This document shows, piece after piece, positions 106-14,890 of a stretch of 14,890 nt of DNA (positions are counted from its first letter, which is position 1; every line of letters begins with the position of its first letter). The notes beneath the pieces are model-generated. The model was not told where the DNA came from. It was given only the letters and a program-made list of their open reading frames with translations, and made no database searches. The position numbers were made by a program, and so were the translations under genes. Origin of the DNA: Escherichia coli (lineage in GTDB: Bacteria; Pseudomonadota; Gammaproteobacteria; Enterobacterales; Enterobacteriaceae); the NCBI RefSeq assembly GCF_003334255.1, contig NZ_QOWU01000078.1; one strand, written 5' to 3'.

Positions 106-1650
106 TTACAGGTGTACTTCATCAATGTCTAACAATGACTTTTGAAGCACTTCAAAGACTGAACTATGGTCAAAGTCTTTGTTTTCTCGTGCAACTGAAA
201 TACCAGAGAAAGATTTACCATTCAATAAGCGTATAGTTATTTCTTGCTTGTAGTAGTCAAAAATCATCTCTTTGATAAATGACTTTATGGCAAGTTGTAG
301 TTTGATACGTCCCTCTACAGTTTTCCGGTCACTGTCTTGGATATCATTGTCTGACCTTAATGACTGGATAGCTTCAGCCTGTCTTAAATCCTTCTTCTTA
401 GATTCAAGTTCAACACGGTTGTTTGTTATTCTTTGGGCTAATGTGTCAAGGTCACCCAATCCTCTTTCTGCAAGGCTAATTAGGTTATTAATCCCTTTTT
501 CTAGTGATGTGATATCGGCTTTAAGCGTGGTAACAGAAATATTGTCACCATTACTCTTAAGGCTCAGATACTGAAGTGTGGGGAATACCTTTTGAATGAG
601 TATATCTTCAATCAATGAACGGTTAAATGCCTTAGAATTACAACGTCCAAGTTGACGATTACGACATTCAAGATAGCCTCTAGGGTAGCGTCCTTCTGGT
701 GTCTTCTTGGTATTACGCTGACGCAGTGTAGAACCACATTCTGCACACTTGCATATCCCTTTAAAGATATCAATAGAACTTGGTTGTCGTGAGGTTGGCT
801 TCTTGCCTTTGCCTTGACCTCTAATCATCTGTACGGCATGAAACTTTTCTTTTGAAATAGCAGGGGGGAAATAGTCACTGACTCCGTAAGCAACGCCAAT
901 TAGAGACTCCTTTAATAAAAGGTCACGTACTCTTGTAGGTGTCCAGCCTGTGTCTACCTTTTTATTCGTAATGGTGGGGATGTTTTCAAGATTTAAATCT
1001 CTGGCGATTGCATGTAGTGATTTTCCTGAAAGTTTTTCGTCAAAGATTCTATGAATTGTTTCTACGTGGTGAGGTATTAACGAAAATGATTTTCCGTCAG
1101 AATTGAGTTTTAACCATCCGGGGCAATTACCGGTTATCTTTGTTCCATCCTGTTCAAACTGTTGTCGTTTATGTGACCATACCTTTTTAATACGGTCAGA
1201 TTTAATAACAGACTCGTTATGGCTACGCTCTTGTAGGATAATCATTCTGATTAATGCGAGAGAATCATCAAGAGATTGGCGGTTATACGTTTCACCGTCG
1301 CTTAGAGTGACAACCGTAATACCTTGCTCAAGAATAGCCCTGATAGTTTCCTGTGCATGGCTGATTGACTGACGGCTTACACGGTCTAACGATTCCACCA
1401 GCAAGACAGAATCTGGCGGTATCAGACCTTGCTTAACAGCTTCAAGAAAAGCCCTGAGTGCTCCACCTTCTTTTAGATGGTCACCGTGAAAGGCTGAACG
1501 ACCTAAATCTTCAAAACTAAGAGATTCGTCTAGGATGTGGTCTGGATGGCTGGCTAACCAATCCTGTATGGCCTTACTCTGTCTTCGATGACTATCACCA
1601 AAAGCTTGTTTCGTTGACGAAAAGCGAATGTAACTGTAAACCTTCCTCAT
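106..1650 (-). CDS. Large serine recombinase (serine integrase; resolvase-type catalytic domain + recombinase domain + zinc ribbon + C-terminal coiled coil)
   Basis: 514-aa ORF. N-terminus YIRFSSTKQ fits the resolvase/invertase catalytic serine motif. A Cys cluster (CKCAECGS...YLECRNRQLGRCNS) fits the zinc-ribbon domain, and the C-terminus is heptad-rich and coiled-coil-like. An in-frame stop lies 6 codons upstream of the ATG, and there is no clear Shine-Dalgarno sequence. Confidence 0.85.
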   Translation of the reverse strand: MRKVYSYIRFSSTKQAFGDSHRRQSKAIQDWLASHPDHILDESLSFEDLGRSAFHGDHLKEGGALRAFLEAVKQGLIPPDSVLLVESLDRVSRQSISHAQETIRAILEQGITVVTLSDGETYNRQSLDDSLALIRMIILQERSHNESVIKSDRIKKVWSHKRQQFEQDGTKITGNCPGWLKLNSDGKSFSLIPHHVETIHRIFDEKLSGKSLHAIARDLNLENIPTITNKKVDTGWTPTRVRDLLLKESLIGVAYGVSDYFPPAISKEKFHAVQMIRGQGKGKKPTSRQPSSIDIFKGICKCAECGSTLRQRNTKKTPEGRYPRGYLECRNRQLGRCNSKAFNRSLIEDILIQKVFPTLQYLSLKSNGDNISVTTLKADITSLEKGINNLISLAERGLGDLDTLAQRITNNRVELESKKKDLRQAEAIQSLRSDNDIQDSDRKTVEGRIKLQLAIKSFIKEMIFDYYKQEITIRLLNGKSFSGISVARENKDFDHSSVFEVLQKSLLDIDEVHL

Positions 1651-1704: not shown

Positions 1705-1734
1705 TTAGGAAGTGAAAATCATGATTTTACGCAT
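1705..1734 (-). pseudogene. dinB: dinB (DNA polymerase IV) 5' end, truncated: 14 nt of dinB (ATGCGTAAAATCAT) fused to element DNA, giving a 9-codon ORF (MRKIMIFTS*)
   Basis: The minus strand reads GAGGTGAGCA-ATGCGTAAAATCAT, matching the recalled dinB ribosome-binding site and start (MRKI from MRKIIHVDMD...). The sequence diverges after codon 4 and hits TAA at codon 10. Confidence 0.7.
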
Positions 1735-1750
1735 TGCTCACCTCTCAACA

Positions 1751-1770
1751 CTGGTAAAGTATACAGTGAT
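1751..1770. promoter_or_regulatory. dinB: dinB promoter LexA box
   Basis: The minus strand reads CACTGTATACTTTACCAGTG, identical to the recalled dinB SOS operator, about 16 bp upstream of the dinB ATG at 1734. Confidence 0.8.
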
Positions 1771-1804
1771 TTCAGGGTTTGAGAAATGCGTAAAGATTCA
1801 GCAT

Positions 1805-2560
1805 TTAACGCGTTCGCTGCGAAAGCACCTGCTGCTTATCCAGCTTTTGCACCAGCGGCTGCACCACTTTATCCCCATGCTGACCAAAGTATTGATACAG
1901 CGTATCGGACGCACTTTTGGTCAGCACCATAATCTCAATGCGCCGGTTGCCCGCGCTTTGCGGATTTTTGGAATCCAGCAGCATCTGGTCCGCCATTGCG
2001 CTTACCTGCATCACTTTATCTTCCGGCATTCCGGCCTCTTCCAGCACCCGACGAGCCGAAAGCGCGCGGTCACCCGAAAGGTTCCAGTTGTTGTAGATAT
2101 TGTTTTTGTAGGCCATCGCATCGGTATGCCCGGTAATAATAATTTTATTATCGAGCGAGTCGAACACTGGCGCGAGCTCCACCAGCAGCGTTTTAAAGAA
2201 CGGCATAATCTTCGCGCTGCCGCGTTCAAACATATTGCGGTTCTGGTCGTCTTTAATCAGCACGCGTAATCCCTGGGGAACAATCTCCATCTCCAGATTC
2301 GCTTCCATATGCGCATCACGGGCAATGGTGTTGATACTGGTTGCCAGCTCACCAAGCTCGGTGGCGGATTTCTTCTTCAGCAGCGCCGTTTTCTCATTCA
2401 CATCACGCGCTTTTTTCTCCGTCTCTTCCGGCACCGCCACGGTGGCAGGTTTTGGCGGATGAGACGGGCTGATTTTATTTAACGGCGACAGCCCACCACC
2501 GTTAAAAATCGACTGCCCGTGCAGCGCGGCGATAATGCTTTCACGCTCGGATTTACTGAC
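1805..2560 (-). pseudogene. lafU: lafU remnant (MotB-like lateral flagellar motor protein, N-terminally truncated Flag-2 relic)
   Basis: The translation has a MotB/OmpA-like C-terminal domain (NWNLSGDRALSARRVLEE...RRIEIMVL) but lacks the N-terminal transmembrane helix. The six-frame ORF extends to 2695 only by reading antisense through lfhA. Position between lfhA and PdinB matches K-12. Confidence 0.75.
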
Positions 2561-4274
2561 GCTGTTGACAATCAACTTTATTGTCGTCACCAAAGGGGCC
2601 GAGCGTATTTCCGAGGTTTCTGCCCGCTTTACCTTAGACGCGATGCCCGGCAAACAGATGGCGATTGACGCCGATCTTAACGCCGGATTGATCAACCAGG
2701 CGCAGGCGCAAACCCGGCGTAAAGATGTTGCCAGCGAGGCCGATTTCTACGGCGCGATGGACGGGGCATCGAAGTTTGTGCGCGGGGACGCCATCGCCGG
2801 GATGATGATTCTGGCGATCAACCTGATCGGCGGCGTCTGTATCGGGATCTTCAAATACAACCTGAGCGCCGATGCTGCCTTCCAGCAGTATGTGCTGATG
2901 ACCATCGGCGACGGCCTGGTGGCGCAGATCCCTTCCCTGCTGCTCTCCACCGCGGCGGCGATTATCGTCACCCGCGTCAGCGACAACGGCGATATCGCCC
3001 ATGACGTGCGTAACCAGCTGCTGGCAAGCCCGTCGGTGCTCTACACCGCCACCGGGATTATGTTCGTGCTGGCGGTGGTACCGGGAATGCCGCACCTGCC
3101 GTTTTTGCTGTTCAGCGCCCTGCTTGGTTTTACCGGCTGGCGGATGAGCAAACAGCCGCTGGCGGCGGAGGCGGAAGAGAAAAGCCTCGAAACGCTGACC
3201 CGCACCATCACCGAAACCAGCGAGCAGCAGGTCAGTTGGGAAACCATTCCGCTGATCGAGCCTATCAGTTTAAGCCTCGGTTACAAACTGGTGGCGCTGG
3301 TGGACAAAGCACAGGGTAACCCGCTCACCCAGCGGATTCGCGGCGTGCGGCAGGTGATTTCTGACGGCAACGGCGTGCTGCTGCCGGAGATCCGCATTCG
3401 GGAAAACTTCCGCCTTAAGCCCAGTCAGTACGCCATTTTCATCAACGGCATAAAGGCTGATGAAGCGGATATTCCGGCGGATAAACTGATGGCCCTGCCC
3501 TCCAGCGAAACCTACGGCGAGATTGACGGCGTGCAGGGGAACGACCCGGCGTACGGGATGCCGGTCACCTGGATCCAGGCGGCGCAGAAAGCGAAGGCGC
3601 TGAATATGGGGTATCAGGTGATCGACAGCGCCAGCGTGATCGCTACCCATGTAAATAAGATTGTGCGCAGCTATATTCCTGATTTGTTTAACTATGATGA
3701 TATTACGCAGTTGCATAACCGTTTATCGTCGACGGCACCGCGTCTGGCGGAAGATTTGAGCGCGGCGCTCAATTACAGCCAGTTGCTGAAAGTGTACCGG
3801 GCGCTGCTGACCGAAGGCGTTTCCCTGCGCGATATCGTCACCATCGCCACCGTGCTGGTCGCCAGTAGCACGGTGACGAAAGATCATATTCTGCTGGCGG
3901 CCGATGTGCGCCTGGCATTGCGGCGCAGCATTACCCATCCGTTCGTTCGCAAGCAGGAGCTGACGGTGTATACGCTGAATAATGAGCTGGAAAATCTGCT
4001 GACCAACGTGGTGAATCAGGCGCAACAGGGCGGGAAAGTGATGCTCGACAGCGTGCCGGTCGATCCGAATATGCTCAACCAGTTCCAGAGTACGATGCCA
4101 CAGGTGAAAGAGCAGATGAAAGCGGCGGGGAAAGACCCGGTGCTGCTGGTGCCACCGCAGCTGCGCCCTTTGCTGGCGCGTTATGCAAGGTTGTTTGCGC
4201 CGGGGCTGCATGTGCTGTCGTATAACGAAGTGCCGGATGAGCTGGAGTTGAAGATTATGGGGGCGTTGATGTAA
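2535..4274 (+). pseudogene. lfhA: lfhA remnant (FlhA-family flagellar export apparatus protein, N-terminally truncated Flag-2 relic)
   Basis: 579-aa ORF with FlhA-family motifs (VVTKGAERISEVSARFTLDAMPGKQMAIDADLNAGLI) that begins inside the conserved transmembrane region, so about 100+ N-terminal residues are missing. Length matches the recalled K-12 lfhA fragment. Confidence 0.8.
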
Positions 4275-4297
4275 GTATCCAGCATTGGTGCACAACT

Positions 4298-4487
4298 GCC
4301 GGATGCGGCGTGAACGCCTTATCCGTCCTACCGTTCAGGCACAAGTTTGTAGGCATGATAAGACGCGCCAGCGTCGCATCAGGCATCTGCGCATAACTGC
4401 CGGATGCGGCATAAACGCCTTATCCGGCCTACCGATCCGGCACAAGTTTGTAGGCATGATAAGACGCGCTAGCGTCGCATCAGGCAT
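4298..4487. repeat. BIME: four REP (repetitive extragenic palindromic) units in alternating orientation
   Basis: GCCGGATGCGGCGTGAACGCCTTATCCGTCCTAC (4298-4331) and GCCGGATGCGGCATAAACGCCTTATCCGGCCTAC (4399-4432) alternate with GTAGGCATGATAAGACGCGCCAGCGTCGCATCAGGCAT (4349-4386, 4450-4487). These are canonical E. coli REP sequences. Confidence 0.85.
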
Positions 4488-4497
4488 CTGCGCACAA

Positions 4498-4995
4498 TTA
4501 TGAAATGATACGCTCCCCGGCACTAAAATCCGTTACGTCCCCCGCCCAATCGATGGGATATAACCCTCGCGCGACATCGCGATGGAACGTTGAGAATGGC
4601 CAATCACTCACTTGCTTTACCCAACCATGCTTTACTGGATTTATATAAATATAATCAACATGATGCCTATAATCTTTGGTATTGCGGATGGCGTGCTCCC
4701 AAAAACGTGGTTGCCAGATATTTTTCAATCCACAAGCATGGGTAAATTGCTTTTTAATTTCCCGCCAGCGCGAGGAAAAATCATCATCGCCTTCAGGTAA
4801 TGTCCAGATACAGTGCATATGCTCTGGCAAAACGACCCAGGCGTTGATTTCAAAAGGCCTGTCTCGCTTAACTTTAATAATGGCGTGACGGAGCATCTGG
4901 TACTGGGTGGTCAAAAGTTGGCTTCGACGATTTCGTAAATTCACCGTGAAAAACCATGTTCCCCCCTTGATGTAATAACGACGATATTCAGACAT
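4498..4995 (-). CDS. rayT: REP-associated tyrosine transposase RayT (TnpA-REP, HuH family; IS200/IS605-like)
   Basis: 165-aa ORF matching recalled RayT/YafM (MSEYRRYYIKGGTWFFTVNL...), with the HuH motif (PEHMHCIW) and REP arrays on both sides. Confidence 0.9.
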   Translation of the reverse strand: MSEYRRYYIKGGTWFFTVNLRNRRSQLLTTQYQMLRHAIIKVKRDRPFEINAWVVLPEHMHCIWTLPEGDDDFSSRWREIKKQFTHACGLKNIWQPRFWEHAIRNTKDYRHHVDYIYINPVKHGWVKQVSDWPFSTFHRDVARGLYPIDWAGDVTDFSAGERIIS

Positions 4996-5090
4996 GGCGA
5001 CTCCTTTTTCTCAACGGTAAGAAGAAAAGGAAAGGTTGGCAATGAGGTTGTTTTATATCGGGAAAGCGGCTCGCAAATATTCGCGGGCTC

Positions 5091-5174
5091 GTAGGCATGA
5101 TAAGACGCGCCAGCGTCGCATCAGGCACCTGCGTACAACTGCCGGATGCGGCGTAAACGCCTTATCCGTCCTAC
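5091..5174. repeat. REP pair (BIME) on the other flank of rayT
   Basis: GTAGGCATGATAAGACGCGCCAGCGTCGCATCAGGCA (5091-5127) and GCCGGATGCGGCGTAAACGCCTTATCCGTCCTAC (5141-5174), in inverted arrangement relative to the 4298-4487 array. Confidence 0.8.
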
Positions 5175-5920
5175 AAAATCGTCTCTTCCGTCAAAATCCT
5201 GCGCGCGCCCAAAAAATGGTCCTGCCAGAAAGGTTCGGCTAATCGGCTTATCCGAATGGTTTCGCCGGTACGTGGCGACTCGATAAATTGCCCATCGCCC
5301 AAATACACGCCCATATGATCGGCTATCTCGCGGCTGTGGATATGGAAAAACAGCAAATCTCCCCGGCGCAGGTCGTTGTTCGCCACAATCGTTGCCCGGC
5401 GATAGTGGTACATCTCATTGGCCGTGCGCGGGAGCTTAGCCTCAAGGATCTTGTTGTAGGCATAAAAAACCAACCCGCTACAGTCAAAGCCTTTATCAGG
5501 CCGCGTACCGCCCCAGACGTAAGGCTTGCCAAGCTGCTGCTCCAGGCGGTGAATCGCCACTTCGGTAATGTTATGCAGATGGTCGCTGCTTAAAAAGTGG
5601 TTGTTTTCCGCCAGCGCCTGCCAGCGTCTGTCACTCGCCTTGAGCGGAGCAGGAAACCATTCTGGATGCTGTTTTATCTGCTCCCGGTTGTGCTGGCGTA
5701 GCGCCCTTTTGCTTTCGGCATTGCCTTCCACAATATAGCTGGCCTGCTTTTTCAGATGAGTTTGGTACTGTTTTAATAAACGCGCACGGTTTTGCATCCG
5801 CTGGCGGGCGGCGTAGCTGAAAGAGATATGTGATGTGGTGGCGCTGGCAAATGAAGAAAACGGCAAACAAATCAACAGTAATCCCGACAATACAAAGGAT
5901 GGAATCGACGGCAAGGACAT
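5171..5920 (-). CDS. yafL: NlpC/P60-family putative peptidoglycan endopeptidase/lipoprotein YafL
   Basis: The ORF 5171..5980 contains MSLPSIPSFVLSGLLLICLPF... from codon 21, giving 249 aa as recalled for K-12 YafL. The NlpC/P60 Cys motif (DCSGLV) and His are present. The start is chosen by homology, not by ribosome-binding-site analysis. Confidence 0.85.
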   Translation of the reverse strand: MSLPSIPSFVLSGLLLICLPFSSFASATTSHISFSYAARQRMQNRARLLKQYQTHLKKQASYIVEGNAESKRALRQHNREQIKQHPEWFPAPLKASDRRWQALAENNHFLSSDHLHNITEVAIHRLEQQLGKPYVWGGTRPDKGFDCSGLVFYAYNKILEAKLPRTANEMYHYRRATIVANNDLRRGDLLFFHIHSREIADHMGVYLGDGQFIESPRTGETIRISRLAEPFWQDHFLGARRILTEETIL

Positions 5921-6097
5921 ACTCAATAATGGCTGGTCATGCTTTAATGTTGCAGTGTATCCCGGATCGTTTCTGAACAAACTTAATAAACCATTATTAT
6001 AAAATTAACATATATATTTCAGTTAATTATGTAAAAACATCCGTTTATTAAATTACTCATGGATTGTCGCTGTTGCTCATTTGAGCTACAATTCAAG

Positions 6098-6113
6098 CTG
6101 AATAAATATACAG
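6098..6113. promoter_or_regulatory. LexA box in the dinJ-yafQ promoter
   Basis: CTGAATAAATATACAG (CTG-N10-CAG, AT-rich spacer), about 17 bp upstream of the dinJ ATG. dinJ is a known damage-inducible gene. Confidence 0.7.
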
Positions 6114-6129
6114 CACAGGAGATACCCCA

Positions 6130-6390
6130 ATGGCTGCTAACGCGTTTGTTCGCGCCCGAATCGATGAAGATCTGAAGAATCAGGCAGCGGACGTACTGGC
6201 CGGGATGGGGCTGACCATCTCTGACCTGGTTCGCATAACCCTCACAAAGGTCGCGCGTGAAAAGGCATTGCCGTTTGATTTACACGAGCCTAATCAATTA
6301 ACCATTCAATCAATCAAAAACAGCGAAGCTGGCATTGATGTTCATAAGGCCAAAGACGCCGATGATTTATTTGATAAATTAGGAATTTAA
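6130..6390 (+). CDS. dinJ: Antitoxin DinJ (RelB/DinJ family)
   Basis: 86-aa ORF matching recalled DinJ (MAANAFVRARIDEDLKNQAADVLAGMGLTISDLVRI...). Its stop lies 2 nt from the yafQ start. Confidence 0.95.
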   Translation: MAANAFVRARIDEDLKNQAADVLAGMGLTISDLVRITLTKVAREKALPFDLHEPNQLTIQSIKNSEAGIDVHKAKDADDLFDKLGI

Positions 6391-6392
6391 AT

Positions 6393-6671
6393 ATGATTCA
6401 AAGGGATATTGAATACTCGGGACAATATTCAAAGGATGTAAAACTTGCACAAAAGCGTCATAAGGATATGAATAAATTGAAATATCTTATGACGCTTCTT
6501 ATCAATAATACTTTACCGCTTCCAGCTGTTTATAAAGACCACCCGCTGCAAGGTTCATGGAAAGGTTATCGCGATGCTCATGTCGAACCGGACTGGATCC
6601 TGATTTACAAACTTACCGATAAACTTTTACGATTTGAGAGAACTGGAACTCACGCGGCGCTCTTTGGGTAA
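6393..6671 (+). CDS. yafQ: Toxin YafQ (RelE/YafQ ribosome-dependent mRNA interferase)
   Basis: 92-aa ORF matching recalled YafQ (MIQRDIEYSGQYSKDVKLAQKRHKD...), in operon arrangement with dinJ. Confidence 0.95.
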   Translation: MIQRDIEYSGQYSKDVKLAQKRHKDMNKLKYLMTLLINNTLPLPAVYKDHPLQGSWKGYRDAHVEPDWILIYKLTDKLLRFERTGTHAALFG

Positions 6672-6826
6672 AGCCCGCTTCCGATGAAATTTGTAAACCC
6701 TGCGCCGACAGGCTTGCGTAAAACTCTTTTGGTGATAATGTGAGCCTTCCAAATCCAGACTATTCCGATTTGGGATCCATTTTGCCGTCCTGGCGTGTGT
6801 AACCGTTTTATCAAGGAATAAGCAGT

Positions 6827-7567
6827 ATGCGTAAAATCGCATTAATTCTTGCGATGTTGTTGATCCCGTGCGTTTCATTTGCCGGTTTGCTGGGCAGCAG
6901 TAGCTCTACCACGCCTGTGAGCAAAGAGTATAAGCAGCAGTTGATGGGATCCCCTGTCTACATCCAGATCTTCAAGGAAGAACGTACGCTCGATCTCTAC
7001 GTCAAAATGGGCGAGCAATATCAACTGCTCGACAGCTATAAAATCTGTAAATATTCCGGCGGCTTAGGGCCAAAACAGCGTCAGGGCGATTTCAAAAGCC
7101 CGGAAGGGTTTTATAGCGTCCAGCGTAATCAGTTAAAACCAGACAGCCGTTACTACAAAGCGATTAATATTGGTTTCCCCAATGCCTATGACCGTGCGCA
7201 TGGTTATGAAGGGAAATACCTGATGATCCACGGCGATTGTGTTTCCATCGGCTGCTACGCAATGACCAATCAGGGTATTGATGAGATATTCCAGTTCGTT
7301 ACTGGTGCGCTGGTGTTTGGTCAGCCGAGCGTGCAAGTGAGTATTTACCCGTTCCGCATGACCGACGCCAATATGAAGCGCCATAAATATTCCAACTTTA
7401 AGGACTTCTGGGAGCAACTGAAGCCGGGTTACGACTACTTTGAGCAAACCCGTAAGCCACCAACCGTTTCTGTGGTCAATGGTCGTTACGTGGTCAGCAA
7501 GCCGTTAAGCCACGAAGTTGTGCAGCCACAACTGGCATCAAACTACACGCTCCCCGAGGCAAAATAA
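6827..7567 (+). CDS. yafK: YkuD-fold L,D-transpeptidase-like protein YafK (DpaA/LdtF, peptidoglycan-Lpp amidase)
   Basis: 246-aa ORF with an N-terminal signal peptide ([19 protein letters not shown]) and the YkuD catalytic region ([13 protein letters not shown]). A Shine-Dalgarno sequence (AGGAA) lies upstream. Confidence 0.9.
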
Positions 7568-8305
7568 GCGCCATTCGCCTGGCATAATCTTTTGCCAGGT
7601 TTCATTGCCCGTCAGCGGCTGTGTTGCAATCACCGTGACCACATCATTCGGTGTGGTCTGCGAGCTGAAGTCGATTTCCACATCCTGATCCAGCAACGTT
7701 GCCACGCCAAACGGCGCGCGGCGGGTGATCCAGTGTAAATTAGTCGAGCAATACGCCATTACATAGCGCCCGTCCGAAAGCAGCATGTTGAAAACGCCCT
7801 TCTGCCGCAGTTCATCCGCCAGTGAGGCGATATATTTAAATACCGCCGCCATGTTGCCCGGTGTGCGCGGGTAACGCTGCGTTAATTTATGCAGGAGCCA
7901 GCAGAAGGCTTTTTCGCTGTCGGTTTCGCCTACCGGGCGGAAGTTGCCGGTTTCCAGTGATTTGTAGCCCGTCAGTTGTCCGTTATGGGCATAAGTCCAG
8001 TTACGCCCCCATAACTCGCGGGTAAATGGGTGAGTATTTTCCAGCGCCACCTCGCCCCGATTAGCCTGGCGAATATGAGCCACCACCGAACAGGATTTTA
8101 TCGGGTAGTCCTGGACAAGTTTGGCGATGGGGGAATTAAAGCTGGGTTGTGGATCTTTAAATGTGCGACAGCCTTTACCTTCGTAAAAGGTAATGCCCCA
8201 GCCATCTTTATGTGGCCCGGTTCCACCACCACGCTGTACAAGCCCGGTGAAACTAAAGCAGATATCGGTAGGGACGTTGGCGCTCATCCCGAGCAATTCG
8301 CACAT
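7538..8305 (-). CDS. yafJ: Class II glutamine amidotransferase-like protein YafJ
   Basis: The ORF 7538..8320 contains [19 protein letters not shown]... from codon 6 (255 aa). An N-terminal nucleophile Cys follows Met, typical of class II amidotransferases. A GGAGG Shine-Dalgarno sequence lies upstream of this start. The 3' end overlaps yafK convergently by 30 nt. Confidence 0.9.
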
Positions 8306-8368
8306 GGGTAACCTCCACAACAGCGGGAGCGCATGGCCCCCGGCGAAGATTGATTTAAGAATTTTCAG

Positions 8369-8503
8369 GTCGGATGCGGCGTGAACGCATTATTCGGCCT
8401 ACGGTTCGCGTACAGATTTGTAGGCATGATAAGACGCGTCAGCGTCGCATCAGGCATCAGCGCACAAATGCCGGATGCGGCGTAAACGTCTTATCCGGCC
8501 TAC
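8369..8503. repeat. BIME: three REP units between yafJ and gmhA
   Basis: GTCGGATGCGGCGTGAACGCATTATTCGGCCTAC (8369-8402), GTAGGCATGATAAGACGCGTCAGCGTCGCATCAGGCAT (8420-8457) and GCCGGATGCGGCGTAAACGTCTTATCCGGCCTAC (8470-8503). Confidence 0.85.
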
Positions 8504-8510
8504 GCCAGAC

Positions 8511-9089
8511 TTACTTAACCATCTCTTTTTCAATCAACTGGATCAGGATATGGATCACTTTAATGTGAATCTCCTGAATGCGGTCGGCATAACCAAAGTG
8601 CGGTACGCGAATTTCGATATCCGCCGTGCCAGCCATTTTGCCGCCGTCTTTACCGGTCAGGGTGATCACTTTCATTCCCTTCTCACGCGCCGCTGCGATC
8701 GCTTTGATCACGTTTGCAGAGTTACCGGAGGTGGAGATCCCCAGCAGTACATCGCCTTCGCGACCTACCGCTTCAACGTAGCGGGAGAAAATATCATTGA
8801 AACCGAAATCATTACCGACGCAGGAAATATGACTAACGTCAGAAATAGCAATCGCCGGGTAGCCCGGACGGTTTTCACGGTAGCGACCGGTCAACTCTTC
8901 GGCAAAGTGCATAGCGTCGCAATGGGAACCGCCGTTGCCGCAGGAAAGCACTTTGCCACCGGCTTTAAAGCTGTCTGCTAACAGGACCGCCGCGCGCTGA
9001 ATGGCGTGAATATTGGCGTCATCTTTTAAAAAGTTAGCCAGCGTTTCCGCCGCTTCGTTCAGTTCGTTACGAATAAGATCCTGGTACAT
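8511..9089 (-). CDS. gmhA: Phosphoheptose isomerase (sedoheptulose-7-phosphate isomerase), LPS core heptose biosynthesis
   Basis: The ORF 8511..9122 contains [20 protein letters not shown]... from codon 12 (192 aa). The SIS-domain motif ([16 protein letters not shown]) is present. Confidence 0.9.
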
Positions 9090-9290
9090 GAGGATATCCT
9101 TCAGCATAAATGTAATAGACAAAATGCAGTGTACCGGATACCGCCAAAAGCGAGAAGTACGGGCAGGTGCTATGACCAGGACTTTTTGACCTGAAGTGCG
9201 GATAAAAACAGCAACAATGTGAGCTTTGTTGTAATTATATTGTAAACATATTGCTAAATGTTTTTACATCCACTACAACCATATCATCAC

Positions 9291-9307
9291 AAGTGGTCAG
9301 ACCTCCT
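9291..9307. promoter_or_regulatory. Candidate FadR operator upstream of fadE
   Basis: AAGTGGTCAGACCTCCT matches the FadR consensus AACTGGTCNGACCTGTT at 14/17 positions, about 20 bp upstream of the fadE start. Confidence 0.55.
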
Positions 9308-9328
9308 ACAAGTAAGGGGCTTTTCGTT

Positions 9329-11773
9329 ATGATGATTTTGAGTATTCTCGCTACGGTTGTCCTGCTCGGCGCGTTGTTCTATCACCGCGTGAGCTTATTT
9401 ATCAGCAGTCTGATTTTGCTCGCCTGGACAGCCGCCCTCGGCGTTGCTGGTCTGTGGTCGGCGTGGGTACTGGTGCCTCTGGCCATTATCCTCGTGCCAT
9501 TTAACTTTGCGCCTATGCGTAAGTCGATGATTTCCGCGCCGGTATTTCGCGGTTTCCGTAAGGTGATGCCGCCGATGTCGCGCACTGAGAAAGAAGCGAT
9601 TGATGCGGGCACCACCTGGTGGGAGGGCGACTTGTTCCAGGGCAAGCCGGACTGGAAAAAGCTGCATAACTATCCGCAGCCGCGCCTGACCGCCGAAGAG
9701 CAAGCGTTTCTCGACGGCCCGGTAGAAGAAGCCTGCCGGATGGCGAATGATTTCCAGATCACCCATGAGCTGGCGGATCTGCCGCCGGAGTTGTGGGCGT
9801 ACCTTAAAGAGCATCGTTTCTTCGCGATGATCATCAAAAAAGAGTACGGCGGGCTGGAGTTCTCGGCTTATGCCCAGTCTCGCGTGCTGCAAAAACTCTC
9901 CGGCGTGAGCGGGATCCTGGCGATTACCGTCGGCGTGCCAAACTCATTAGGCCCGGGCGAACTGTTGCAACATTACGGCACTGACGAGCAGAAAGATCAC
10001 TATCTGCCGCGTCTGGCGCGTGGTCAGGAGATCCCCTGCTTTGCACTGACCAGCCCGGAAGCGGGTTCCGATGCGGGCGCGATTCCGGACACCGGGATTG
10101 TCTGCATGGGCGAATGGCAGGGCCAGCAGGTGCTGGGGATGCGTCTGACCTGGAACAAACGCTACATTACGCTGGCACCGATTGCGACCGTGCTTGGGCT
10201 GGCGTTTAAACTCTCCGACCCGGAAAAATTACTCGGCGGTGCAGAAGATTTAGGCATTACCTGTGCGCTGATCCCAACCACCACGCCGGGCGTGGAAATT
10301 GGTCGTCGCCACTTCCCGCTGAACGTACCGTTCCAGAACGGACCGACGCGCGGTAAAGATGTCTTCGTGCCGATCGATTACATCATCGGCGGGCCGAAAA
10401 TGGCCGGGCAAGGCTGGCGGATGCTGGTGGAGTGCCTCTCGGTAGGCCGCGGCATCACCCTGCCTTCCAACTCAACCGGCGGCGTGAAATCGGTAGCGCT
10501 GGCAACCGGCGCGTATGCTCACATTCGCCGTCAGTTCAAAATCTCTATTGGTAAGATGGAAGGGATTGAAGAGCCGCTGGCGCGTATTGCCGGTAATGCC
10601 TACGTGATGGATGCTGCGGCATCGCTGATTACCTACGGCATTATGCTCGGCGAAAAACCTGCCGTGCTGTCGGCTATCGTTAAGTATCACTGTACCCACC
10701 GCGGGCAGCAGTCGATTATTGATGCGATGGATATTACCGGCGGTAAAGGCATTATGCTCGGGCAAAGCAACTTCCTGGCGCGTGCTTACCAGGGCGCACC
10801 GATTGCCATCACCGTTGAAGGGGCTAACATTCTGACCCGCAGCATGATGATCTTCGGACAAGGAGCGATTCGTTGCCATCCGTACGTGCTGGAAGAGATG
10901 GAAGCGGCGAAGAACAATGACGTCAACGCGTTCGATAAACTGTTGTTCAAACATATCGGTCACGTCGGTAGCAACAAAGTTCGCAGCTTCTGGCTGGGCC
11001 TGACGCGCGGTTTAACCAGCAGCACGCCAACCGGCGATGCCACTAAACGCTACTATCAGCACCTGAACCGCCTGAGCGCCAACCTCGCCCTGCTTTCTGA
11101 TGTCTCGATGGCAGTGCTGGGCGGCAGCCTGAAACGTCGCGAGCGCATCTCGGCCCGTCTGGGGGATATTTTAAGCCAGCTCTACCTCGCCTCTGCCGTG
11201 CTGAAGCGTTATGACGACGAAGGCCGTAATGAAGCCGACCTGCCGCTGGTGCACTGGGGCGTACAAGATGCGCTGTATCAGGCTGAACAGGCGATGGATG
11301 ATTTACTGCAAAACTTCCCGAACCGCGTGGTTGCCGGGCTGCTGAATGTGGTGATCTTCCCGACCGGACGTCATTATCTGGCACCTTCTGACAAGCTGGA
11401 TCATAAAGTGGCGAAGATTTTACAAGTGCCGAACGCCACCCGTTCCCGCATTGGTCGCGGTCAGTACCTGACGCCGAGCGAGCATAATCCGGTTGGCTTG
11501 CTGGAAGAGGCGCTGGTGGATGTGATTGCCGCCGACCCAATTCATCAGCGGATCTGTAAAGAGCTGGGTAAAAACCTGCCGTTTACCCGTCTGGATGAAC
11601 TGGCGCACAACGCGCTGGTGAAGGGGCTGATTGATAAAGATGAAGCCGCTATTCTGGTGAAAGCTGAAGAAAGCCGTCTGCGCAGTATTAACGTTGATGA
11701 CTTTGATCCGGAAGAGCTGGCGACGAAGCCGGTAAAGTTGCCGGAGAAAGTGCGGAAAGTTGAAGCCGCGTAA
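9329..11773 (+). CDS. fadE: Acyl-CoA dehydrogenase FadE (beta-oxidation)
   Basis: The ORF 9251..11773 contains [24 protein letters not shown]... from codon 27 (814 aa). A Shine-Dalgarno sequence (AAGGGG) lies about 8 nt upstream of the ATG at 9329. An acyl-CoA dehydrogenase core follows the N-terminal membrane segment. Confidence 0.95.
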
Positions 11774-11781
11774 ATGAATAA

Positions 11782-11806
11782 CGGAGCCGAAAGGCTCCGT
11801 TTCTTT
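11782..11806. terminator. Candidate bidirectional intrinsic terminator between convergent fadE and ivy
   Basis: CGGAGCC-GAAA-GGCTCCG hairpin (7-bp GC-rich stem, 4-nt loop) followed by TTTCTTT on the plus strand and flanked by an A/T-rich run on the other side. Confidence 0.6.
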
Positions 11807-11815
11807 ATCCGCTAA

Positions 11816-12289
11816 TTATTTAAAATTAAAGCCATCCGGATGGTTTTCCAGGCTGCCGGTCAACGCCGCGAACAACACCGTTTTACCATCAATCGAAAGC
11901 GCATCGTTCACATTCAGCCAGGTGAGTTTCTCTTGCGACGTTTTCTCATCAATAGTCGAGAACAGCCCCGTCATCTGATTAGATTTCTCGGACCACATCA
12001 CAGCGATACGTTGCGAGCCACAGTCATGCGGTTTGCACGCGCTCATCACCTGATACGTCTCATCTCCCAACGTTACGGTTTGTGCGGGAGTATAAGTACC
12101 GCCTTTCATCACCCAGGCAGGCAGCTTATGCCCTTGTACCATCTGATTAAATGCAGCTTTGGTGGTTTCGCCCTTTGCAAGGCTGCTAATGGTTAAATCA
12201 TCCTGCGCCATTGCACTGGTGGCGATGACCAGAGCGGCGACTGTCGTTATTGCCTTAAACATCATTCCTCCCGAGCTTATCCTGCCCAT
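11816..12289 (-). CDS. ivy: Inhibitor of vertebrate (C-type) lysozyme, periplasmic
   Basis: 157-aa ORF matching recalled Ivy, with a signal peptide (MFKAITTVAALVIATSAMA) and the CKPHDC inhibitory loop motif. Confidence 0.9.
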   Translation of the reverse strand: MGRISSGGMMFKAITTVAALVIATSAMAQDDLTISSLAKGETTKAAFNQMVQGHKLPAWVMKGGTYTPAQTVTLGDETYQVMSACKPHDCGSQRIAVMWSEKSNQMTGLFSTIDEKTSQEKLTWLNVNDALSIDGKTVLFAALTGSLENHPDGFNFK

Positions 12290-12442
12290 GTTATTAACCT
12301 CCTAAAGCCTGGCGATAACACGATAATTTGCAAATCAGATATTTCCAATATCAGCATTTGTTATCAATTTATTCTGCGCTAAGGCAACTGCCTGATAAGG
12401 TGTTAAAGTTATAAAACCCTTCGCATAAAGGAGTTGTACACC

Positions 12443-13213
12443 GTGCCTGGTTTGAAGATTACGCTTTTGCAGCAACCACTGGTGTGGATGGATGGTCCTG
12501 CCAACCTGCGTCATTTTGATCGTCAACTGGAAGGTATTACCGGGCGCGATGTGATCGTTCTACCGGAGATGTTTACCAGCGGCTTTGCCATGGAAGCGGC
12601 AGCTTCGTCGCTAGCACAAGATGACGTAGTGAACTGGATGACAGCTAAGGCGCAGCAGTGCAATGCGCTGATTGCAGGCAGTGTTGCATTACAAACGGAG
12701 TCTGGTTCGGTTAACCGCTTTTTGCTGGTTGAGCCGGGCGGCACGGTACATTTTTATGATAAGCGTCATCTGTTCCGCATGGCAGATGAGCATCTACATT
12801 ATAAAGCGGGCAATGCGCGAGTGATTGTGGAATGGCGCGGCTGGCGTATTTTGCCGCTGGTGTGCTACGACTTACGTTTTCCTGTGTGGTCGCGCAATCT
12901 CAACGATTATGACCTCGCCCTGTACGTCGCCAACTGGCCTGCTCCGCGCTCTCTGCACTGGCAGGCATTGCTGACGGCCCGCGCGATTGAGAATCAGGCG
13001 TATGTGGCGGGATGCAATCGCGTCGGCAGCGATGGCAACGGCTGCCATTATCGCGGTGACAGCCGGGTGATTAATCCGCAAGGAGAGATTATCGCTACTG
13101 CCGACGCGCATCAGGCAACGCGCATTGATGCGGAGCTGTCGATGGCAGCATTGCGGGAATATAGAGAAAAGTTTCCGGCATGGCAGGATGCGGATGAGTT
13201 TAGGTTGTGGTGA
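12443..13213 (+). CDS. yafV: Nitrilase-superfamily omega-amidase (2-oxoglutaramate amidase) YafV
   Basis: CN-hydrolase fold with the catalytic triad context (E in VLPEMF, K in YDKRHLF, C in LVCYDLRFP). The GTG start at 12443 is chosen 9 nt after the AAGGAG Shine-Dalgarno sequence; the ORF-track TTG at 12434 directly abuts it. Confidence 0.9.
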   Translation: MPGLKITLLQQPLVWMDGPANLRHFDRQLEGITGRDVIVLPEMFTSGFAMEAAASSLAQDDVVNWMTAKAQQCNALIAGSVALQTESGSVNRFLLVEPGGTVHFYDKRHLFRMADEHLHYKAGNARVIVEWRGWRILPLVCYDLRFPVWSRNLNDYDLALYVANWPAPRSLHWQALLTARAIENQAYVAGCNRVGSDGNGCHYRGDSRVINPQGEIIATADAHQATRIDAELSMAALREYREKFPAWQDADEFRLW

Positions 13214-13253
13214 GTGGGGGTTGTGTTTAAGGACGGGGAGAGTCGGGGTATTA

Positions 13254-14390
13254 CTACGAAAGCCCGCTCCCCGCAAGGACTGACGCCAGGTAGTTTCTGT
13301 CCATGGCTGCTTTTCGCATCTTACGTCTTAACCCTGCCTTGAATACCTTCTCATTCGTCAAAATATTAATAGCAATGTGCCGTATCCCTGAAAATAATTC
13401 TGCTGCGTTTCCTCTTCTTATTTTGTAGTCGTCTTCATTCATTACCACGTCCAGACGCCTGTGCAGCTTATTCTCCACGTGCCAGTGGTTTCGGATTGCT
13501 GTGGCGAACTTCTCTGCGGTTAAATCAGCAGAACTGATATAATATCTGACCGTCATTTCGAGCTCTTTCTTTTGTTCTGCTATTATGGACCGAAAGGAGA
13601 CTGCCACGCATAATTTCTTCAGCCCTTTCCATTCAAACGTGAAATCAATAAGTTCATCAGGGACATCGCAAACAATATGAAGACGGATTTCTTCTCTGCC
13701 GTGACTCTTTTCACTCATTGCGTAACTGTCATGCTCTGGATTATTTAATTCTTTCAGCGGAAATTTTTCCTCAAAGGCTTTATTTAGCCGCCCCTGGTTT
13801 CCTTTTACCGCGAATAAATAATCACCTCCCTGTTTTTGTATCTTCTCTGCAATATCTTTCTGGCAACCCATCGCATCAGTTGTGATGATTTTTCCTTTAA
13901 TATCCAGCATGTTAAGAAGTTCAGGGATAGCTGTAATCTCATTGGATTTCTCATCCGTCCTGATCTGTCCGATGACCAGACTGTGCATTGTTGAGAACGC
14001 ACTAATGACATGAATCGCTCCCTTGCGGCGACTCTTGTCATAAGAATGCCGGAGTGTTTTTCCATCAATTGCGATGACGTCTTTATCATCTGAAGTATGG
14101 CAATCTCGCATCCAGTTAATAAAGCACTCGTGAAATTTTGAAGGACTGATACAGGATACAACTCTGGCGATGGTATCGTGAACAGGAATACCATTTTCAA
14201 AATCACCATATTGTTTTAAAAAATCGAGATGTGTTTCCCCAAAATCCTCTATATCTTCCCAGCCTTCTGCACCAGAAATAACGGCACAAATAGTCAACAG
14301 TAGAATATCCGATAATTTATGTTCCACTTTCCAGGCTTGTCTGTAATCGGGGATAATAGAAATATGTTCCATCAATTTTTTAAGTTCCAT
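13254..14390 (-). CDS. ISAs1-family transposase (H-repeat-associated ORF-H protein), apparently intact
   Basis: 378-aa ORF closely resembling E. coli H-repeat proteins (YhhI/YdcC/YbfD family). The K-12 equivalent position is recalled to hold only a short remnant (yafF). The IS ends were not delimited. Confidence 0.85.
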
Positions 14391-14488: not shown

Positions 14489-14534
14489 GCGAATTATTTA
14501 GTACAAAAAATCAGCGTTACGTGATCTTTCCCTG
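14489..14534. repeat. Direct repeat copy 1 (~46 bp)
   Basis: GCGAATTATTTAGTACAAAAAATCAGCGTTACGTGATCTTTCCCTG. Near-identical copy at 14741-14787. Confidence 0.6.
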
Positions 14535-14740
14535 CCCCTGCGCTCACTACCATGGCTCTTTACCACAGCAGCCGGGGTTGTTTGGGACCGACTTCCGACA
14601 GCAGATCCCGGTGGGCCTGCCACCATCTCTTCACAAGCTTATGCTTATTACATGCAAAACGTCCCGTTTTGCATCTTTGTGCCTACGGCACACCGGTGAT
14701 CTTTCCCTGATGAGGGATATATTAACTATTGAACATTAGC

Positions 14741-14787
14741 GCGAATTATTTAGTGCAAAAAATCAGCATCACGTGATGCTTTTCCTG
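14741..14787. repeat. Direct repeat copy 2 (~47 bp) containing a 16-bp perfect palindrome
   Basis: GCGAATTATTTAGTGCAAAAAATCAGCATCACGTGATGCTTTTCCTG. AGCATCACGTGATGCT is a perfect palindrome with a CACGTG core. Confidence 0.6.
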
Positions 14788-14890
14788 CTATTAATAACCT
14801 CCTCTATTTAACTGGTGATGCTGCCAACTTACTGATTTAGTGTATGATGGTGTTTTTGAGGTGCTCCAGTGGCTTCTGTTTCTATCAGCT

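Follow-up and report, generated by a model that had tools for sequence, protein, structure and literature searches.

A reading frame at the end of an Escherichia coli draft contig very probably belongs to the left terminus of an IS1 insertion sequence

InsA of the insertion sequence IS1 is a zinc-finger plus helix-turn-helix protein whose gene has an A6C motif near its end, InsAB′ is the protein that moves the element, and insertion typically produces a 9-bp direct duplication of the target site. The element measures 768 bp (PMC12428005). Its left terminal inverted repeat (IRL) is a binding site of InsA and InsAB′ and is partially overlapped by the weak insA promoter; InsA binds both IRL and its right-hand counterpart IRR and represses the promoter located in IRL (PMC12428005). 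The DDE transposase InsAB′ is the product of insA joined to insB by a rare −1 frameshift at the A6C motif, and IS1 expression is reportedly affected by external read-through transcription into the element (PMC12428005). In the curated record of E. coli K-12, the mobile element IS1A occupies positions 19796-20563 and includes insA1 (20233-20508, minus strand).

The window analyzed here, 14,890 bp in length, is the entire draft contig QOWU01000078.1 (GCA_003334255.1), and its last 51 bases had been flagged in an earlier note as a possible gene start truncated by the window end. With very high confidence, based on sequence comparison, we assign positions 14814-14890 (plus strand) to the left terminus of an IS1 insertion sequence of the IS1A type, cut by the contig end. 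Alignment of these positions with the left end of the curated K-12 IS1A gave identity at 77/77 bases (100%), the IS1 of strain Z503 is likewise identical at 77/77, and in every copy compared the IS1 similarity begins exactly at GGTGATGCTGCC (14814), which is the annotated boundary of the element. In an alignment of the window with five IS1 copies taken from differing genomic contexts, the six sequences had unrelated flanks and identity started exactly at G14814. The visible part of the element, which closes the window with the bases ...TCCTCTATTTAACT GGTGATGCTGCCAACTTACTGATTTAGTGTATGATGGTGTTTTTGAGGTGCTCCAGTGGCTTCTGTTTCTATCAGCT, amounts to its first 77 bases, approximately 10% of its length, and the 51 flagged bases are IS1 positions 27-77, which take in the putative −10 hexamer, the insA ribosome-binding motif and the GTG with the first seven insA codons described below.

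Megablast with the tail as query returned thousands of places in each of two collections, 5,426 complete E. coli genomes and the plasmids of PLSDB; the places were annotated as IS1-like element IS1A/IS1B family transposase. The last 83 bases of the window match at least 5000 PLSDB plasmids from many enterobacterial genera, and the junction query has matches in 4990 of the 5,426 genomes, with a median of 10 and a maximum of 68 places per genome, which is the multi-copy, mobile distribution of IS1 over genomes and plasmids. No RNA family was found in 14814-14890 by Rfam at its gathering and E-value thresholds. The earlier view that too little sequence is present to call a feature is correct at the protein level but not at the DNA level, where these 77 bases can be regarded as diagnostic for IS1. 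An IS1 left end with a partial insA is ordinary and already known, neither a new gene nor yafU, and the consequence is annotation bookkeeping only, in that the tail should carry this label instead of yafU or a new gene. Under the IS1 reading, CTGTCCCTCCTGTTCAGCTACTGACGGGG... would follow 14890, and the complete element of 768 bp would close with ...GGAGTCATTACC.

Several functional parts of the element lie within the visible segment. The IRL core, GGTGATGCTGCCAACTTACTGAT (14814-14836, plus strand), is identical at 23/23 positions to the curated K-12 IS1A left end and agrees at 18/23 with the IS1A right end read in reverse complement, which identifies it as the terminal repeat; in the five other IS1 copies homology starts exactly at its first base. 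A consensus scan, which also yields approximately 1.5 sites in shuffled sequence, detected a promoter-like pair, CTGCCA-16-TATGAT (14821-14848, plus strand, spacer of 16 nt, 9/12 consensus matches), partly inside IRL. This overlap agrees with the published weak, IRL-overlapping and InsA-repressed promoter PIS1 (PMC12428005), and from the scan and the literature we infer that exactly these two hexamers are its −35 (CTGCCA) and −10 (TATGAT) elements. Direct reading of the sequence places a Shine-Dalgarno-like GAGGTG (14858-14863, plus strand) 5 nt ahead of the GTG start of insA, from which the window holds the first seven codons and one further base (14869-14890, plus strand). These codons, GTG GCT TCT GTT TCT ATC AGC (VASVSIS), are identical to the annotated IS1 CDS starts of RefSeq and K-12: the K-12 insA1 start is IS1 position 56, equivalent to window position 14869, and in Z503, YZ22PE67, a7 and EP91B, four genomes that have this locus in common with the window, the RefSeq IS1 family transposase (programmed frameshift) starts at the base equivalent to 14869.

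For analysis beyond the contig, the window was extended with the Z503 IS1, which is 100% identical across the 79 shared bases. In this extension the frame opened by GTG 14869 comprises 91 codons and yields a 91-aa InsA, which matches the NCBIfam model transpos_IS1 at 7.5e-26 and 91.3 bits, under its 100-bit cut-off for a whole transposase, and passes the IS1/IS1595 zinc-binding domain model with 41 bits against a cut-off of 28. The zinc-finger and helix-turn-helix codons of insA lie beyond the window end and are seen only in the identical extension copy. If the element here were complete, InsA would occupy both terminal repeats, repressing the promoter, and a rare −1 frameshift would give InsAB′, moving IS1. 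The nine bases abutting the element on its left, TATTTAACT (14805-14813), are a candidate left copy of the target-site duplication; strains without IS1 at the junction point run on ...TATTTAACT ATATTTTTCATTG.

Short-read assemblers break at multi-copy repeats. Since the window is the whole contig, its end is the contig end and the record holds no rightward sequence, and the sequence ends at 14890 because this short-read draft contig broke at IS1, a repeat of that kind. A look-up of the window's 378-aa ISAs1 transposase found this exact protein recorded on a single contig, QOWU01000078.1. IS1 extends for exactly 77 nt before the contig stops, a length typical of k-mer overlaps, which suggests a k-mer of 77. 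The left contig end (approximately 1-75/95) also corresponds to the terminus of a multi-copy element, present in up to 22 places per genome, and in strain FDAARGOS_1250 its match lies just downstream of an IS4-like IS421 transposase gene; IS termini at both contig ends are the usual signature of short-read assembly breaking at repeats. A public gene catalogue lists a partial 32-aa call at 14791-14890 on the minus strand, which passes through the terminal repeat of IS1 and off the edge of the contig (ADRNRSHWSTSKTPSYTKSVSWQHHQLNRGGY) and is almost certainly a contig-edge artefact.

The frame to which the earlier note drew attention is a different one from insA. The two strings that it quoted are present, ATGATGGTG at 14844-14852 and GAGGTGCTCCAGTGGCTTCTGTTTCTATCAGC at 14858-14889, and the plus-strand frame with a hydrophobic start is real: an in-frame TAG at 14838-14840 is followed by ATG 14844 and 15 open codons (MMVFLRCSSGFCFYQ) up to the window end. 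This opening is no more than expected by chance and hence uninformative, since 15 open codons follow 167 of the 272 plus-strand ATGs of the window (61%), with (61/64)^15 = 0.49. In the extension with the identical Z503 IS1, a stop codon closes the frame after 22 codons, 22 nt to the right of the window end, an outcome that the note itself had named as speaking against its proposal. As had been suggested, the window end does truncate a gene start, but the gene is insA, whose GTG 14869 sits inside GAGGTGCTCCAGTGGCTTCTGTTTCTATCAGC in another frame than ATGATGGTG.

It is very improbable that the 22-codon frame (MMVFLRCSSGFCFYQLSLLFSY; 14844-14890 of the window, plus strand, overlapping the insA start out of frame) acts as a regulatory upstream ORF of IS1 or encodes a real small protein, expressed from read-through transcripts, and equally improbable that this stretch, IS1 positions 31-99, is translated and, by way of read-through from flanking DNA, modulates insA/insAB′ translation. 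The frame does keep its length and stop position in both full IS1 copies translated, the IS1A type and the a7 variant, although these differ at 66/768 bases, and external read-through has a reported effect on IS1 expression. Between the two copies, however, the frame has 1 synonymous and 9 non-synonymous codon changes, many of them radical, whereas the overlapping first 22 codons of insA have 7 synonymous and 3 non-synonymous changes (15 and 5 over the 91 codons of insA); selection therefore acts on insA and not on the frame from ATG 14844. In addition, the two ATGs lie within and just after the TATGAT hexamer, so that transcription from the IS1 promoter probably starts downstream of them; the sequence before 14844 shows no evident Shine-Dalgarno motif, and the 22-aa peptide scanned against NCBIfam has no family. 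The frame is best described, from its sequence, as a chance ORF and not a gene. Still less likely is that the tail is the start of yafU or of another chromosomal membrane-protein gene running rightward from ATG 14844, as in K-12. The earlier note is right that K-12 has yafU in this orientation, and yafU there lies beside yafF: the K-12 order is yafV, yafF remnant and yafU, with yafU directly after the remnant and on the strand that is plus in the window orientation, and the peptide from ATG 14844 has hydrophobic residues at its start. Against this, the window is 99.992% identical to K-12 from 1721 to 13534 only, where K-12 diverges inside the ISAs1 transposase gene, and YafU of K-12 begins MSSERDLV... 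and not MMVFL, with a match of 2 residues only between the two peptides. No similarity was found by blastn and tblastn of the tail and of the whole window against K-12 yafU and its intact 304-aa homologue; with K-12 YafU (112 aa) and the 304-aa form of ET745, the best tblastn E value was 0.27, elsewhere in the window, with none at 14800-14890. The identification with yafU was rejected on the 77/77 match to IS1, the stop after 22 codons and the negative tblastn.

The remaining alternative, in which IS1-mediated rearrangement left behind a solo or truncated end and the 77 bases are not part of a complete 768-bp element, is unlikely but deserves more weight than the two readings above. The IS1 lies in a variable region between the ISAs1-family (H-repeat) element and the aspV tRNA island, and this locus is prone to rearrangement. 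The nine bases on either side of IS1 are unmatched in Z503 (L001 3498-4283; ACCCATGCT versus ACACATTTA) and in a7 (L004 4045-4821; TATTTAACT versus TAAGCAATA), and ET745 carries an IS1-bounded inversion (L007 4064-7084) with two oppositely oriented IS1 copies and ykfM split in two inverted halves; IS1-mediated deletion and inversion are therefore common at the locus. However, every neighbouring-strain IS1 inspected at the locus has its full length and an intact transposase CDS with the frameshift, and a multi-copy repeat of full length gives just such a contig break, exactly one k-mer inside the element.

Among the 5,426 complete E. coli genomes searched, none has a 100% single-piece match to the junction, and only a7 and EP91B share it, with a different IS1 variant located at the same nucleotide as in the window. 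IS1 is 90 bp further right in Z503 and the YZ22PE strains, and approximately 410-460 bp further right in ET745, OkiPb01684 and others. The divergent IS1 of a7 at the exact nucleotide of the window could reflect an insertion hotspot or IS1-to-IS1 conversion. In E. coli, the segment from the H-repeat element to tRNA-Asp (aspV) has been a recurrent target of IS1 insertion and rearrangement, which is ordinary genome plasticity.

Other features of the window are also of a mobile or repeated nature. An intact gene for the 378-aa ISAs1-family (H-repeat) transposase lies at 13254-14390 on the minus strand, where K-12 has only the 189-bp yafF remnant and where the YZ22PE67 copy has an internal stop. 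Between this gene and IS1, the Rfam family RF01999 (group-II-D1D4-2) has a full-length match at 14504-14624 on the minus strand (81.8 bits; gathering score 36). The match marks a fragment of a group II intron that carries no annotation, and no other domains of such an intron were detected. A 183-bp segment here occurs, likewise without annotation, in about 2,560 of the 5,426 E. coli genomes, usually once. The intron fragment is flanked by two direct repeats, one a pair of 37 nt at 92% identity (14489-14525 and 14741-14777) that extends to about 80 nt at 81%, the other the exact 14-mer GTGATCTTTCCCTG at 14521-14534 and 14696-14709, 175 nt apart; both may be duplicated ends of ISAs1-type elements. 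A terminator-like hairpin at 14765-14780 on the minus strand lies outside IS1, in a repeated segment. Compared with the window at 13534, K-12 (NC_000913.3 239098-239102; L003 4099-4103) has the 3′ part of the ISAs1 transposase gene joined to approximately codon 193 of the 304-aa yafU homologue, and the two alignments overlap by 5 nt at this junction. Relative to the gene order of the window and ET745, yafF and yafU, the adjacent pseudogenes of K-12, look like what one deletion left on its two sides; this deletion would have removed the intron fragment and a 130-aa hypothetical gene.

Toward the other end of the window, a 514-aa serine recombinase family gene (106-1650, minus strand) adjoins lafU. 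Near-identity to K-12 starts only at 1721, after a breakpoint at 1720/1721 located 13 nt inside the K-12 dinB start, and the recombinase is annotated beside dinB in some strains; together, the recombinase by dinB and the breakpoint suggest an integrated element at or in dinB. Three matches to Rfam naRNA4 (nucleoid-associated ncRNA, REP-type repeat) above the gathering score, at 4352-4429, 5094-5171 and 8423-8500 on the minus strand, coincide with repeated segments of 84-133 nt that are also present in K-12.

Compared with known systems, yafU (b0218) of K-12 occupies the equivalent neighbourhood and strand, after the yafF remnant, but has no sequence similarity to anything in the window; the K-12 gene is itself a remnant, retaining only 112 C-terminal codons for a 304-aa protein found intact in other strains. 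The IS1 copies of a7 (NZ_CP122496.1) and EP91B (NZ_CP149810.1) share with the window the same flank, ...CCTCTATTTAACT|, the same orientation and the same neighbours (ISAs1 transposase, yafV, ivy and fadE). They belong, however, to a divergent variant that differs from the IS1A type at 66/768 positions, 10 of which are within the first 77 bases, and in a7 the right flank of the element does not repeat the 9-bp target. The IS1A of K-12 MG1655 (NC_000913.3 19796-20563; insA1 b0022, insB1 b0021) differs in genomic location, K-12 being without IS1 at the yafF-yafU locus, but is identical to the window at all 77 visible bases, with the same element boundary and the same insA GTG at IS1 position 56.
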